DNA from: Octopus vulgaris
Taxonomy: Eukaryota
Direction: 5' to 3'
Length of the DNA: 64,000 nucleotides
Assembly: GCA_951406725.2 (NCBI GenBank)
Contig: OX597816.1
Location: forward strand, 10,912,001 to 10,976,000
The notes under the pieces were generated by a model. The model searched no databases. It was not told the DNA's origin and was given only the letters and a program-made list of their open reading frames with translations. The translations under genes were made by a program, and so were the position numbers. Positions within the stretch are counted from its first letter, which is position 1; each line of letters begins with the position of its first letter. This document shows, in pieces, positions 2,761 through 51,689 of this stretch.

Positions 2761-3304
2761 TAACAACAGGTAACCTAAATTGTGCTCATCATCAATTTAT
2801 ACATTTTGCATAATTTATCCAATATATATATATATATATACATACATACATATATATATATACATATATATATATACATATATATATTATATAATTAGGG
2901 CTTAGTAAAATAAATTACTTTGCCACATACTGAACTTAGTAGAAATAGCAGCCCCAAAAAATTTTTTTAGCCATTTCCAAGCCCTAATTATATAATGTAA
3001 TATTTTGAATTCGCCTTAAATGGTCCTTTTACATACTGAACACTTGGTGAAATTGATTAATTAATTTTACCCTCAATTGTTGATATTATAATTCATTTCT
3101 CTCTGTCATACTGCCTCGGTTCTCGCGGTTAAAATATAATGTTTGCTAGATAGACCACGTGGGTGGAATGGGGAGTGCAGAATTTTACGCCTGCGCATTT
3201 TGAATTTGTTGACACTGTTAGTTGGAGTGGTTCATCTGAAGCGACAAGTTCGCTGATAGGTAAAGTTCCTTCTTTTTAGTGTTTCCAAATCCAAATTAAG
3301 AAAT

Positions 3305-3367
3305 TTTGAGCTGACGAAAGAAATGCTGATTTTATTTGGCTAATCTTGAAACGTTGACGTACTCAAA
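3305..3367 (+). ncRNA. Type I hammerhead ribozyme
   Basis: Stem I tttgag/ctcaaa; CTGACGA 3311-3317; stem II aaga..gctga/ttggc..tctt; GAAA 3348-3351; short near-palindromic stem III ACGTTGACGT; GTA triplet with cleavage after 3361. Confidence 0.85.
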
Positions 3368-3869
3368 CGATCTATGTACTTGTGATATTTTTCTGTATTT
3401 ACCTCCAAACCTTCGTGAGCTGTCTGGAGTAAACATTATCTGAGAGAAATTTTCTTTAAGTAGTGGAAATGGCTAAAAAATTTTTTTTTTTTTGGCTGCT
3501 ATTTCTACTAAGTTCAGTATGTGGCAAAGTAATTTATTTTACTAAGCCCTAATTATATAATGTAATATTTTGAATTCGCCTTAAATGGTCCTTTTACATA
3601 CTGAACACTTGGTGAAATTGATTAATCAATTTTACCCTCAATTGTTGATATTAAAATTCATTTCTCTCTGTCATACTGCCTCGGTTCTCGCGGTTAAAAT
3701 ATAATGTTTGCTAGATAGACCACGTGGGTGGAAGCGGAGTGCAGAAATTTACGCCTGCGCATTTTGAATTTGTTGGCACTTTCAGTCGGAGCTGGTTCAT
3801 CTGAAGCGATAAGTTCGCTGATAGGTAAAGTTCCTTCTTTTTAGTGTTTCCAAATCCAAATTAAGAAAT

Positions 3870-3932
3870 TTTGAGCTGACGAAAGAAATGCTGATTTTAT
3901 TTGGCTAATCTTGAAATGTTGACGTACTCAAA
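3870..3932 (+). ncRNA. Type I hammerhead ribozyme (second tandem copy)
   Basis: Same as 3305-3367 except one C>T in stem III (G-U wobble); cleavage after 3926. Confidence 0.8.
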
Positions 3933-4229
3933 CGATCTATGTACTTGTGATATATTTCTGTATTTACCTCCAAACCTTCGTGAGCTGTCTGGAGTAAACA
4001 TTATCTGAGAGAAATTTTCTTTAAGTAGTGGAAATGGCTAAAAAAATTTTTTTTTGGCTGCTATTTCTACTAAGTTCAGTATGTGGCAAAGTAATTTATT
4101 TTACTAAGCCCTAATTATATAATGTAATATTTTGAATTCGCCTTAAATGGTCCTTTTACATACTGAACACTTGGTGAAATTGATTAATTAATTTTACCCT
4201 CAATTGTTGATATTATACATATATATATA

Positions 4230-7713: not shown

Positions 7714-7840
7714 TTATATATATATATACACACATATATATGTGTGTATATATATATATAGATCACTGTCTATCTGTCTGTCTGTCAGTCTGACTCTATC
7801 TATCTCTCTCTCTCTTTCTATATATATATATATATATATT

Positions 7841-8492
7841 TCAACAATTGAGGGTAAAATTAATTAATTATTAATTAATTTCACCAAGTGTTCAGTATGC
7901 AAAGGGACCATTTAAGGCGAATTCAAATTATTACAATATATAAAAGGGCTTAGTAAAATAAATTACTTTGCCGCATACTGAACTCATTAGAAATAGCAGC
8001 TAAAAAACTTTTTTAAAAACCATTTCTAATACTTAAAGAAAATCTCTCTCATATAGTGTTTGGTCAACTCAACTCACGAAAGTTTAAGCAGAGTGTTTGT
8101 TGATTTTAACCCACGCTGGTGGAAAGGGGAGAGCAGAAATTCTTCGCTTGCATGTTTGAGTTTGTTGGCACTGTTAGTTACGAGCAGATCTTCGAAAGCG
8201 ATGAGAGGCCGAAAGAGTATGCTCTCATTTTCAGTGTTTTCAAATCCAAACCAAGGAGTTTCTGAGCTGATGATAGAAGTGTCGTGATGACTAATCTTGA
8301 AACGGACGTTCTCAAATAACCTTTGCATTTGATTTTTTGATGTCTTTACCCCCAAACTTTCGTGAGTTGAGTTGACCAAACACTATATGAGAGAGATTTT
8401 CTTTAAGTATTAGAAATGGTTTTTAAAAAAGTTTTTTAGCTGCTATTTCTAATGAGTTCAGTATGCGGCAAAGTAATTTATTTTACTAAGCC

Positions 8493-8503
<11 letters not shown>
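7841..8503. mobile_element. Fold-back copy of the 2.9-4.2 kb hammerhead element family
   Basis: 7841-8085 is a minus-strand copy of the family 3' end and 8090-8503 a plus-strand copy; apparently perfect inverted repeat 7936-8085/8354-8503; TA flanks. Confidence 0.85.
8263..8314 (+). ncRNA. Type I hammerhead ribozyme (diverged homolog of 3305-3367)
   Basis: tgag-CTGATGA(8267-8273)-taga..gtc gtgat gac..tctt-GAAA(8299-8302)-cggacg-TT-ctca; GTT triplet. Confidence 0.7.
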
Positions 8504-9189: not shown

Positions 9190-10620
9190 AATTGACTTGT
9201 GATTATTTGTCCAAAATATTTATTAGGCCTTCCTATTTTTCTCCCTGTATCCTCGTTAATTATTGTGATGTCACTACCTGTGTCTAACTGTAGTCTCATA
9301 TTCACATTATTTTTGTAGAGACAAATTCTCTTTTTTGTGCCTCGCTTTGCATTTGTGTTGACAATACTTTTTATCTCGAATTTTTTCGTTCACCTTTTCT
9401 TGTTTCGTCCAACTATGTGAATTCTTGTGTCCAACTTCACATCTGAAACGGTTTCATCATCATCATCGTTTAACGTCCTCTTTCCATGTTAGCATGGACT
9501 GGATGATTTGACTGAGGACTGGCGAACCAGATGGCTGCACCAAGCTCCAATCTTGATCTGGCAGAGTTTCTACAGCTGGATGCCCTTCCTAACGCCAACC
9601 ACTCCAAGAGTGTAGTGGGTGCTTTTGCGTGCCACTGGCATGAGGGCCAGTCAGGCAGTACTGGGAACGGCCATGCTCAGATGGTGTTTTTTACATGCCA
9701 CCTGTGCAGGAGCCAATCCAGTGGCACTGGCAACGACCTTACTCAAATGTTTTTTCACGTGCCACTGGCATGGAAGCCAGATAGTGCTCTTAGCGCTCCA
9801 CTAGCACGGATGCCAGTCATCAAATTTGATTTCGATTTCGATTTTAGATTCTTAAAAGGACAGTTTCTTTTGGAATGTATTTCTCCACATCCATAACATG
9901 GTTTAGGTCTTGAGTATTGTTCTTCTTTTTTCTTATCTGTTACAGGTCGACGCTTATGTATATTTGAATAATCTTCTTCAATTTTTTTCTGCTTCCTATC
10001 ATAGATTTATAATTCTTTGGCATTCTTCAGCCACTATTTGTAGAGTTAGTTTTGAATCTTGTTCAAGCTTTGTCAACATTCTAGCCCTTATCTCTGCATC
10101 TTTACTTGCCATTAATCCTTGTACAAAGATTAAACATTTAAACATGTCTGGGCTTAATTCGTTGAGTTTAAATTTTTCACATTCTCTATTTACGATTCTG
10201 GCAAACATGACGAAATCTTCCGTTTCTGTTTTTTGCTTTTTATTCACATTCAAACACTTCCAGCGAATATTAATTAGCAAACTTCTTTCACTGAATATTT
10301 TAGATAATAGCTTAATTGTTTCCTCAAAACAAATTTTGGATGGTTTCCTGGGCAAGATGTAATTACAAAACTTTTCATGTTCTGCTGGTCATAATTTCCT
10401 TAAAAGAAAACGTACCTTTTTTTCATCCATCCAGCTTCTACACTCTTTTACACTCTTCCTTGAAGATTCCTTCATACCTTCTGAAGTATGCAGAAAACAT
10501 AATCCCTTCTTCTGGATTATACATGAATTCTTCAATTGAATTAGCCACTACATCTGATGTAAATGAACCTGAAGTGTTTTTTGACTGCAATAATAATTCC
10601 AACAACTGTTGATTTTGTTG
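9190..10620 (-). mobile_element. Ty3/Gypsy LTR retrotransposon gag-protease remnant
   Basis: ORF 9999-10355 is gag-like (..FKCLIFVQGL..IRARMLTKLE..); CCHC knuckle CYGCGEIHSKRNC near 9860-9900; protease motif LQLDTGSDITII near 9260-9295; stops present; interrupted by a LINE tail. Confidence 0.8.
9455..9840 (-). mobile_element. RTE-LINE 3' UTR / (GAT)n-tailed repeat, family C
   Basis: catcatcgtttaacgtc..ccatg..gcatgg..gatgcccttcctaacgccaaccac signature, seen about 18 times in the window. Confidence 0.85.
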
Positions 10621-10729
10621 TTGTAGTTGCTGTTGTACATGTTCTTGCTATTTCTGTTGTTCTTGTTGTTGCTGTAGTTACCATTGTAACTGTTGCTGTT
10701 ACTGCTCTCGTTATAGTTTTTGTTATAAC

Positions 10730-11183
10730 AGAACCGTTAAATGGAGGATGTTATCTAATAGTCGTGGATAGTTACACGAAATGGCTGAAAATATTTAAAT
10801 GTGGGAATCCAGCCTCCAAAGTAACGATGGAATTTCTGGATGAACTTTTTGCGTGATATGGCAGCCCAGACACTATAGTGTCTGATAATGGAGCACAGTT
10901 CATGTCAAAGGAATTTAAAATCTTTTACAAAATGCATGCAATAGAGCATATTACTACTCCACCATACCATCAGAGATTGAATGGACTTGCAGAACGTTTC
11001 GTAGACATGTTTAAGAGGGTACTGAAAATATCTAGAAGTGAGCTACTAGCTGATACTGCATTAATGAAGTTCTTAAGTGTCCACCAAATAACACCTAACC
11101 CCAACGCCACTTCAGGTATGCTGACAGCTGAACTTATGTCCACCAGGAAAGCCAGGTCAGTGTTTGACAAATTACTACTGTAG
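10730..11183 (+). mobile_element. Ty3/Gypsy integrase core pseudogene
   Basis: YLIVVDSYTKW..LDELFA*YGSPDTIVSDNGAQFMSKEF..TTPPYHQRLNGLAERFV: rve DDE motifs with an in-frame stop. Confidence 0.9.
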
Positions 11184-38749: not shown

Positions 38750-39454
38750 CCCTTTAGCATTGAAACAGGCCATAACCAGACAAAATATTCTGCCCGTTTT
38801 CTGTTCAAACTGACCAGATCCAGTCTTTCACGTTGAACCTACAATGTCATCCTAAGAATTAAACATTCACATCTTTGAAATCTTGAAGCTAAAAGGTAAT
38901 GCAAGATTAATTAAAAAAACGCTGGTAATGATCACACTTAAAAGGGCACCATTCGAGTGTGATCATTACCAGCATCGCCTTACTGGCACTTGTGCCCGTG
39001 CTAGTAGGGTGCCAAGAGCACCATCTGAGTGTGATTGTTGCCAGAGCAGCCAACTAGCTTCTGTGCTGGTGGCATGTAAAAGGGCACCATTCGAGCGTGA
39101 TCGTTATCAACGTCGCCTTACTGGCACCTGTGCCGGTGGCATGTGTAAAAAAGATTTGAGTGAGGTCATTGCCAGTACCGCCTGACTGACCCCATGCCGG
39201 TGGCATGCAAAAAAGCACCCACTACACTCTCGGAGTGGTTGGCGTTAGGAAGGGCATCCAGCTGTAGAAATTCTGCCAGATCAAGATTGGAGCCTAGTGT
39301 GGCTGTCTGGTTCACCAGCCCTCAGTCAAAATCGTCCAACCCATGCTAGCATGGAAAGCAGACATTAAACGATGATGATGATGATGATGATGATGATGAA
39401 TGTGAATAAATAAACGTTACATTTGATTGGTAAAGTAAATTGAAGCCTAAAGGG
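38750..39454. mobile_element. piggyBac-like MITE with a nested family C tail (38925-39398)
   Basis: ttaa-ccctttagc at the left end and gcctaaaggg-tta at the right end. Confidence 0.45.
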
Positions 39455-39815
39455 TTACTCCAGATTGTAGCCATAGATTAGGCTTGTCAAATATTGAATA
39501 CGGTCTTGGTGCAAAATAAAATATACTTGTTTATGGTATATTCTTATACCCATAACAAAACTCCTCAAATATATATATATATATATAATTAATCAATATA
39601 GGGTGGCAAAAAAAATTTTGTAGAATTCTTTTGCCACCAGCGGCCTAGTGGGAAAAAATTAAATAGTCATAGACCATTTTTAAGTTCAACATCAACAATC
39701 AAGGAACGGCCATAATAGGCCATTCACCCACTAGAAATAACAGCCAAAGCTTCAACCGCAAATAAAAATCAATTCCGTAAACCAGGAGAAAATTTAAAAA
39801 ACATTTACCCTGTAA

Positions 39816-39920
39816 TTTCTTATACGATATACCGTTTCATCTGCTGATTAATGGTAAACTAACTTGATTAAATTAAATCAAGCCAATCTTCCACAGGCCC
39901 TCAGATTCTTCAGTAAGAAA
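39816..39920 (-). ncRNA. Type I hammerhead ribozyme with long stem II
   Basis: Minus strand tttctta-CTGAAGA-atctg..(cttgatt/aatcaag hairpin)..cagat-GAAA-cggtatatcg-TA-taagaaa; 7-bp stem I, 5-bp stem II base, GTA triplet. Confidence 0.85.
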
Positions 39921-40394
39921 TAGCCCAAGTCGGAACAGATATTTTCACGAGGCATTTCCGACCTTGCCAAGTTTATATCTGACCTAAAATTTTCAAATCG
40001 TCGCACTCGCGCCAAATTTATCGGCAGCAAATAAATATAAGCCGTCGATTCCATTACGGAATTAACCAGAAAATTCATAATTAATCAATATAGGGTGGCA
40101 AAAAAAAATTTTGTAGAATTCTTTTGCCACCAGCGGCCTAGTGGGAAAAAATTAAATAGTCATAGACCATTTTTAAGTTCAACATCAACAATCAAGGAAC
40201 GGCCATAATAGGCCATTCACCCACTAGAAATAACAGCCAAAGCTTCAACCGCAAATAAATAAACAAGGGCAAAAGAAAAAAATTTCTAATACCAAATATG
40301 ATGAAAATAGACACATCGTCAATAACCATATAATTCATCACTATAAGCACGCATCTCAAAGAAAGCCGACAGAAATTTCTAAAAAATTCTGTTA

Positions 40395-40455
40395 TTATCA
40401 TATCGGATCCGATTTCAGAGTTAATTCATAAGAACCCGCCCTTCGTCAGTGATAA
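40395..40455 (-). ncRNA. Type I hammerhead ribozyme
   Basis: Minus strand ttatca-CTGACGA-aggg..ctct-GAAA-tcggatccga-TA-tgataa; 6-bp stem I, perfect palindrome ATCGGATCCGAT as stem III, ATA triplet. Confidence 0.85.
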
Positions 40456-40615
40456 ATGCAGCAAAGAAATAAATGGAAGAAGCAAACACTAAGTCATGAG
40501 CACAATTAAGTACCCCAAATACATCCAAAATAGAAATTCCCCAGCACACCTCGAGACACATTTTTTAATATGCTAGACATTGATAGAATATTTTTCGAAA
40601 AATTTTATCATATAT

Positions 40616-40658
<43 letters not shown>

Positions 40659-44996: not shown

Positions 44997-45789
44997 TCAG
45001 GTCACTCCTTGGAATCGAACTCAGAATCTTGGGGTTAACCACTATGCAACATGCCCGTGGGCAATTATGGAGTAGATTTTAGTGCTTATAAATCTAATAT
45101 TTTCCTATCTTCCCTTAATACTGGTTCCCATATGCTACTCATGTCTGCACTCGGTCTGCTTAGGAGGTTGTTGTGTCTTAGCATATGTGATGCTTCTTAT
45201 ACTTTTCGTATTTTCCAGTGGTGTTCCCTGTCTATTATTTTAACTTCATCCCACAGAAGGAGGTGGTCTCCATTTTCCCATACATGATCACCTATACCCG
45301 ATCTATTAATATCTCCTCGTGTCACAGCTTTGCGATGTTTCTCTACCCTTATTTTGAAAGGGCGGCATGTTTTAACCTTTGTATTACTTACCACAGCTGC
45401 ATAGTAGGACAAATATCCATCAAATGTAAATAATGTACATAATTCCTCATCTCTTAATATAGAACTGAAAGATGTTTCTGTTACATCTTGTTCTTGTTTT
45501 TGTTGAATAAAAAAGCCATAATAATTAGGCACCAACCCAACAGTAGATGACACTTGCCCAAGGTACTACTTCACAGCAAGATTGAACCTGTGACCATATG
45601 GTTATGAAGCATGCCTCTCAACCACACACTCATGAGGGATGTGCTGGCGATATCATCTGTTGATTGTAATATTTATTTCTTTATTGCCCACAGGGGGCTA
45701 AACATAGAGGGGTCAAAGGACAGACAAAAGGGTTAAGTCAATTACATTGACCCCAATACATAACTGGTGAATATGCTCCGGAATAATCA

Positions 45790-46339: not shown

Positions 46340-46890
46340 TGGGGGTGGGAGATAATCGATTACATCGACCCCAGTGTGTAACTGGTACTTAATTTATCAA
46401 CCCCGAAAGAATGAAAGGCAAAGTTGACCCCGGCGGAATTTGAACTCAGAACATAAAGACAGATGAAATACCTATTTCAGTACTACCCACAAGAGGCTGA
46501 ACACAGAGAGGACAAACAAGGACAGACAAACGGATCAAGTCGATTATATCGACCCCAGTGTGTAACTGGTACTTAATTTATCAACCCCGAAAGAATGAAA
46601 GGCAAAGTTGACCCCGGCGGAATTTGAACTCAGAACATAAAGACAGATGAAATACCTATTTCTGTACTACCCACAAGGGGCTGAACACAGAGAGGACAAA
46701 CAAGGACAGACAAACGGATCAAGTCGATTATATCGAACCCAGTGCGTAACTGGTACTGCATTTATCAACCCCGAAAGAATGAAAGGCAAAGTTGACCTCG
46801 GCGGAATTTGAACTCAGAACGTAAAGACAGATGAAATACCGCTAAGCATTTTGCCTGGCATGCTAAAATTTCTGCCAGCTCACCATCCTA
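46340..46890 (-). repeat. 184-bp tandem array derived from SINE family D
   Basis: tcgatta landmark at 46356, 46540 and 46724; SINE head only on the last unit. Confidence 0.9.
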
Positions 46891-51560: not shown

Positions 51561-51605
<45 letters not shown>

Positions 51606-51608
<3 letters not shown>

Positions 51609-51652
51609 ACAATTGAGGGTAAAATTAATTAATCAATTTCACCAAGTGTTCA

Positions 51653-51655
<3 letters not shown>
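51606..51655 (-). mobile_element. 50-bp 3'-terminal fragment of the 2.9-4.2 kb hammerhead element family
   Basis: Reverse complement of about 4161-4210, embedded in (TA)n. Confidence 0.85.

Positions 51656-51689
<34 letters not shown>

Follow-up and report, generated by a model that had tools for sequence, protein, structure and literature searches.

In a 64,000-nt stretch of Octopus vulgaris DNA (assembly GCA_951406725.2, contig OX597816.1, positions 10,912,001 to 10,976,000 of the forward strand; hereafter the window, with positions counted from its first letter), two non-coding families of hammerhead-bearing repeats, here named A and B, lie end to end, and the reading that we favor as probable is that a younger copy of B inserted where an older copy of A bordered on (TA)n. 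The window is microsatellite-rich animal DNA, and it also holds a third such family, here named C. Coordinates of the features are collected in Table 1.

Table 1. Features of the A/B composite and of family C in the window.
Feature	Position	Strand	Basis
(TA)n microsatellite upstream, flanking the composite on its 5' side	40613..40658	.	TRF 40610-40658 and sequence
Family A retrozyme piece, 354 nt, intact 3' end	40259..40612	-	Many copies in public runs; records end at 40259
Type I hammerhead A, cut predicted between 40401 and 40400	40389..40461	-	Motif scan, folding
Terminal hairpin of family A (GG...GCC, followed by CU), spanning 26 nt, 6-7 nt ahead of the junction	40266..40293	-	
R copy 1, 5'-truncated second round of family B	40077..40259	-	Alignment
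Family B spacer upstream of hammerhead B	39922..40076	-	Depth in public runs at the level of B
Type I hammerhead B with a long extension of stem II, cut predicted between 39823 and 39822	39815..39921	-	
R copy 2, 3' end of family B; terminal hairpin 39602-39638, then CU	39585..39766	-	
Downstream (TA)8, likely target remnant	39569..39585	.	Sequence
Hairpin sites	40266-40293 (A); 39602-39638 and 40094-40131 (B); ten sites in family C		
Retrozyme of family C, a 565-nt tandem bearing two type I hammerheads (cores 3311 and 3876)	2883-4217	+	
Family C copy, inverted arm, diverged hammerhead with core near 8268	7838-8495		
Family C solo end piece, 55 nt, between two (TA)n runs	51603-51657		

An earlier note on this DNA had proposed two hammerheads on the minus strand, with cuts after 40401 and 39823 and thus 578 nt apart, and a descriptor scan confirmed both, as type I. 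The same note had each ribozyme followed by an identical 182-bp repeat, R; two copies are indeed present, and strict identity fails by a single T in a T-run, the sole difference over 183 columns (99.5% alike). In unit coordinates, R copy 1 begins 56 nt downstream of where B is cut, and the stretch from 40259 to 39585 measures 675 nt, which amounts to 1.37 units of the 492-nt family B repeat. B at this locus is a partial tandem with 5' truncation, in the order R, spacer, hammerhead, R, and it is because of this 1.37-unit tandem that R is present twice: it is the 3' end that belongs to family B, repeated as a terminal redundancy. The resemblance that had been drawn between the 578-nt interval and the 565-nt unit at 3 kb is a coincidence, as the true unit of B is 492 nt long.

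Hammerhead A has the core CUGACGA, starting at 40449, and the cut site AUA; its stem I of 6 bp is prolonged via a 3x3 loop by 3 bp more, its stem II has 4 bp and an inner hairpin, and its stem III, of 4 bp, is a perfect 12-nt palindrome. Hammerhead B has the core CUGAAGA, starting at 39913, and the cut site GUA, with a stem I of 8 bp, a stem II of 5 bp carrying a long extension, and a stem III of 4 bp that forms a 12-nt palindrome with G.U pairs. With a strict descriptor for type I, four motifs were retrieved from the window (A, B and those at 3311 and 3876) and none from 100 block shuffles. Rfam covariance models gave no match at gathering over the window, and at E<=10 the weak matches, numbering 7 and 5, included no hammerhead family. 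The hammerhead folds lie above the MFE by 1.2 (A) and 1.8 (B) kcal/mol; compared with shuffles of the motif alone, A folds no better (z -0.10) and B has a z of -3.58. Activity of the two predicted hammerheads is not assured on these models, because stem III is weakly populated in motif folding (probability 0.04-0.17) and stem I has a low probability in the full 1-kb transcript (about 0.07 for A, 0.07-0.33 for B).

The variants listed from public sequencing runs largely respect the stems. Pairing is kept in all three listed stem variants of hammerhead A and, across A and B together, in 6 of 7, the exception being a B variant at 39847 that breaks a 2-bp helix in the stem II extension. At the center of B's stem III palindrome two bases co-vary from AU to GC, at nearly equal depth and in three runs. 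This co-change, which may be one ancestral event, keeps a pair that is possible only between two copies, and it hints at a double hammerhead formed like with like. The heterologous double-hammerhead module that the earlier note had offered as one explanation found no support: the stem III homo-duplexes reach -19.2 and -13.6 kcal/mol, against -4.5 for a partial pairing of A with B, and in the circularized 578-mer the hybrid stem I has -0.4 kcal/mol, against -5.3 and -5.4. On this modeling a designed two-ribozyme module is unlikely, because the stem III palindromes pair with themselves and not with each other and because stem I of the 578-mer circle is so weak. Folded as circles, the 578-mer has a z of -4.5 and family C one of -6.0; the B monomer has a z of -4.6 and the A piece one of -1.6.

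The separateness of A and B emerges from public sequencing runs, 20 of 24 listed runs containing part of the stretch. Four were analyzed, two guessed to be DNA and two guessed to be RNA; the listings comprised 32 records out of 26,276 and 40 variant rows out of 114, both picked by length or support. Matching contigs numbered 7,549 and 18,032 in the two DNA runs, with many variant sites, and their depth is not a copy number. Medians of summed depth were 0.94 million in B-only bins versus 0.13 million in A bins in run X1, and 2.5 versus 0.054 million in run X3, so that B is deeper than A about 7 times and about 46 times, respectively, with a plain step at the A/R border. Among the 32 listed records, 22 are contained in A, and none of the 22 enters R. 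Three listed records, from two runs, end exactly at 40259 with 25, 4 and 4 unaligned letters, which we infer to be (TA)n. A and B are thus very probably separate multi-copy families, with R as the end of B. The alternative raised in the earlier note, a template-switch chimera of two families sharing a 3' end, holds in part: two hammerhead families do meet here and a template switch is possible, but a shared end is not supported, as R belongs to B and A has its terminus at 40259. That note had named as counter-evidence a chance nesting, in which A and B would occur elsewhere only as separate families, and this is largely what the depth and the listed records indicate, although the A-R join may recur.

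Both parts, A and B, are also present in the two runs guessed to be RNA, in contigs that are not on record as RNA. One contig of a run guessed to be RNA (X9, record 30; 340 nt, depth 378) is a diverged relative of A whose hammerhead has an inner stem II that differs in sequence yet pairs, judged by eye from the loose ends; it is possibly an expressed A-type monomer. The unique flank at 39410-39491 has zero depth in all four runs, and for this reason the runs could come from a related species; they may lack the locus or stem from a sister species. The exact 20-nt R pattern had no match in metagenome and viral contigs. Six metagenome loci (57-65% GC) that matched a degenerate pattern of the hammerhead A core were rejected as chance matches, as they showed no continuation into stem III or stem I and no BLAST match to the window.

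In the variant comparison (39 tabulated rows, the second letter at 40353 having been dropped), the window carries a letter other than the >75% majority of both DNA runs 9 times in A, with 8 of these 9 being GC to AT, and twice in B/R (Fisher p=0.002). The two R copies differ by no substitution in 182 sites (95% bound 1.6%). The A copy has a putative deletion of about 21 nt near 40475, where loose ends at 40473/40475 occur in 26 and 24 contigs. From these sequence differences the A copy looks older than the B copy, although its 'private' alleles could reflect a subfamily difference and not age, since the runs may derive from related species. The extra bases (about 21) of other A copies include, on the ribozyme strand, GTAAGT, a word like a 5' splice site; Penelope-like elements (PLEs) keep introns near the hammerhead.

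The family C copy at 3 kb is flanked by (TA)n on both sides, has two consecutive like units, each with a ribozyme, whereas A and B at the composite do not, and carries an 86-nt inverted 5' arm (2883-2968) that is the reverse complement of 4041-4126. The hammerhead near 8268 in the second copy has a shorter stem II insert, a shorter stem III and a GUU site. C ends either 200 or 291 nt past the cut, so that its two alternative ends are 91 nt apart, each against (TA)n; within the window, no inverted 5' copy and no alternative ends were seen for A or B. A GGTAAAG word stands about 50 nt upstream of the core in C.

Other repeats and fragments in the window were noted alongside. A 184-nt tandem repeat at 46356-46840 (2.6 copies, 97% alike) gave no hammerhead match in the descriptor scans, and the dominant short repeat of the window resembles what we take to be an octopus SINE. 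Decayed fragments resembling an LTR retrotransposon lie at 9999-11183, with a weak integrase (rve) match below cut-off at 10857-11180. A protein fragment at 45.2-45.6 kb had, as the best of two matches, a hypothetical protein of Octopus vulgaris with 64% identity. On the minus strand, the fragment at 45200-45380 resembles the C-terminal part of a Penelope GIY-YIG endonuclease and has this hypothetical protein as its best match. Pfam returned nothing for the GIY-YIG-like stretch at 45.2-45.4 kb, and it carries no weight in what follows.

The ends of the three families resemble one another in structure and not in sequence. A and the B unit each contain a single CCCT (the one in A lies 11 nt ahead of the junction), and the C unit contains two; every CCCT stands just before an end and closes a hairpin opened by GG. 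Relative to shuffles, the hairpins have a z of -3.79 in A (0 of 200 shuffles as stable), -3.06 in B and -1.0 to -4.1 at four C ends. A hairpin descriptor, written post hoc after four ends had been seen, passes 13 of 150 RCCCT sites in the window (1 in A, 2 in B, 10 in C); in 30 shuffles it gave 46 passes, about 1.2% of sites. Of the 13 passing sites, six immediately precede (TA)n and another six hold the corresponding position within tandems, and the motif is present at every 3' end of B and C that abuts (TA)n. The hairpin of A has the same span as most C hairpins, its spacing to the junction is that of C's short end, and at 40291 the majority base (95-98% of depth) converts a U.G pair of the window to C-G. 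Plain alignment of A's last 40 nt with the ends of B or C was not significant (scores reached by 698 and 332 of 1000 shuffles), and local alignments of the A, B and C units stayed at shuffle level (reached by 155, 198 and 165 of 300 shuffles); no significant primary-sequence likeness joins the families. The case is strong but not final that A stops at its own terminus, a GG-hairpin-RCC-CU motif, at 40259. The shared hairpin is a predicted, candidate start signal for reverse transcription.

Under the sequential insertion that we favor, an autonomous Penelope-like protein would bind the retrozyme RNA, as a multimer or a circle, with the octopus PLE protein recognizing the hairpin, and would nick AT-rich DNA. 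cDNA synthesis would then start internally, 6-17 nt 3' of the GG-hairpin-RCC-CU motif, at a site 140-290 nt downstream of the ribozyme cut and not at the cut. In the case of B, R, hammerhead B, the spacer and then R again would be copied, and the truncated 5' end of B would be joined to the last bases of A. Each hammerhead would act in the homo-multimers of its own family, as a monomer or via its self-complementary stem III, and cleavage and circles would serve only these multimers; the 578-nt RNA from A to B would be an accidental by-product, its circle lacking a proper stem I.

How the two families came to be joined was weighed against the join itself, which lies 142 nt from the cut of A and 56 nt from that of B, has an exact overlap of at most 1 nt, and retains no TA repeats beyond 'AT'. 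The two copies could be the product of a single event, in which, after 1.37 units of B, the Penelope-like RT re-started on family-A RNA at A's hairpin, using the A-rich cDNA end as primer, so that both pieces were inserted together. The common orientation and the direct join at A's natural end, with its minimal overlap and without intervening (TA)n, speak for such a hetero-tandem, as do the template jumping of R2 RT, which needs just 1-2 nt (PMC8857657), the start of PLE RT at an RNA site non-homologous to the primer (PMC11167929), and the cross-family signal that the shared hairpin offers. We nevertheless consider it rather unlikely: A has more rare GC-to-AT changes than B, and a deletion, so that a template from a decayed locus would be needed, and L1 chimeras arise by RNA pre-ligation, jumping being perhaps physiologically unneeded (PMC8857657). 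Sequential insertion is favored over this single event because A looks older than B.

That A-R-B-R, or A-R, is a recurring recombinant subfamily, propagating as a unit and yielding a 578-nt circle, appears quite improbable. The good folding of the 578-mer as a circle would fit, and both ribozymes look intact, but this folding is owed to its B parts, as the z values of the B monomer and the A piece given above indicate; copies with the weak hybrid stem I would lack a good ribozyme, and no listed A record enters R, even if a minor subfamily could hide outside the 32 listed records. DNA-level repair or ectopic recombination of two older neighboring inserts, or an assembly error in repeat-rich DNA, is in our estimate very improbable; none of the listed records bridges the join, and the flank is uncovered, yet the join falls exactly at A's terminal motif, an unlikely pick for random repair or mis-assembly. 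It is barely credible that two self-cleaved RNAs were joined by an RtcB-type ligation prior to reverse transcription, or that A and B work as a functional heterologous double hammerhead. Cleaved retrozyme RNAs are RtcB substrates (PMC7229834) and dimeric hammerheads are known (PMC4209133), but the join is at neither cut, and this position, together with the overlap of at most 1 nt, rules out ligation of cleaved RNAs as the origin, while the stems III of A and B do not cross-pair beyond their partial duplex.

The elements fit most of the tested features of non-LTR retrozymes and of non-autonomous PLEs. Like metazoan non-LTR retrozymes (Cervera and de la Pena 2020, PMC7229834; Li, Clavereau and Pollet 2026, bioRxiv 10.64898/2026.07.22.740005), they are non-coding and low in GC, occur in many copies, measure a few hundred bases and carry a single type I hammerhead in each unit. 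In the present case, the hammerhead cores are intact, the GC content is 32-36%, no stop-to-stop ORF of at least 100 aa lies within 39585-40533, and many genomic copies were found in public-run contigs. At 492 and 565 nt, the units exceed the 150-450 bp of PMC7229834 and fall within the 51-972 bp of bioRxiv 10.64898/2026.07.22.740005; stem III has 4 bp here versus 1-2 in metazoan non-LTR retrozymes, and two families are joined at one locus, unlike in those described. The accessible parts of these two sources hold no mention of cephalopods, mixed-family joins or a shared terminal hairpin. They do describe genomes that hold several retrozyme families whose ribozymes differ (16 in coral, 2 in axolotl, 2 in mussel), propose that non-LTR retrozymes stem from Penelope-like pseudo-LTRs as non-autonomous derivatives, and report that animal retrozymes self-cleave and circularize and are proposed to use PLE proteins. 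One of nine dimers tested in bioRxiv 10.64898/2026.07.22.740005 cleaved. By the terms of that source, in which an active element has at least two consecutive like units with ribozymes, A (one piece) and B (1.37 units, one ribozyme) are both monomer-type at this locus.

Likenesses to PLEs extend to the architecture of the insertions. Partial tandem and 5' truncation are common to Penelope-like insertions and to B, while the partial tandem, inverted 5' copy and two alternative ends of such insertions (PMC8557442) are matched by family C. (TA)n targets and type I hammerheads with a palindromic stem III (PMC8557442; PMC4209133) are found here too, as is an end downstream of the cut at a stem-loop (PMC11167929). 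Unlike an autonomous PLE, the composite has no RT or endonuclease ORF (RT plus GIY-YIG); the alternative ends of C are 91 nt apart versus 30-40 in PLEs, and the terminal stem-loop is GG/A-rich/U-rich/RCC-CU versus AC-rich in the lizard element (PMC11167929). In the lizard, the Penelope-like protein introduces nicks into both strands of AT-rich DNA, cDNA of this element starts internally at two sites in the stem-loop downstream of the hammerhead, and insertion needs no ribozyme cleavage (PMC11167929). As in the viroid-type double hammerhead (PMC4209133), stem III is self-complementary in A and in B, but here the double form is possible only between like copies and A with B cannot form it. In O. 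vulgaris, 190 Penelope-like families have been described, and 30 Penelope families were recently active (PMC13282606); A, B and C may already be catalogued among those 190 without their ribozymes.

In summary, these observations place hammerhead retrozymes in cephalopods, for which a search of openly available texts yielded no earlier report, although supplements could list cases; nor did this search find a report of an octopus retrozyme, a mixed-family join or the terminal hairpin. The two-ribozyme layout itself most likely came about by accident, two repeats having used one target, and matters little alone. The more interesting lead is the shared terminal hairpin: insertions of three families end just after it, beside (TA)n, and not at the ribozyme cut, as would be expected for internal priming of the Penelope type and not for ends defined by cleavage. 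The preprint bioRxiv 10.64898/2026.07.22.740005 leaves the mobilization mechanism of animal retrozymes open, and the window offers a testable handle on it. If the hairpin is a start signal, it would link retrozymes to a particular PLE enzyme and provide a short, assayable RNA tag. A further proposal, that the hairpin is a cis signal for one Penelope-like enzyme on unrelated families and the locus a frozen single two-family reaction, we regard as unlikely; if true, mixed-family tandems would be common in the octopus, and they would offer a route for the shuffling of ribozymes among retrozymes, as well as a minimal RNA tag for PLE-driven insertion.
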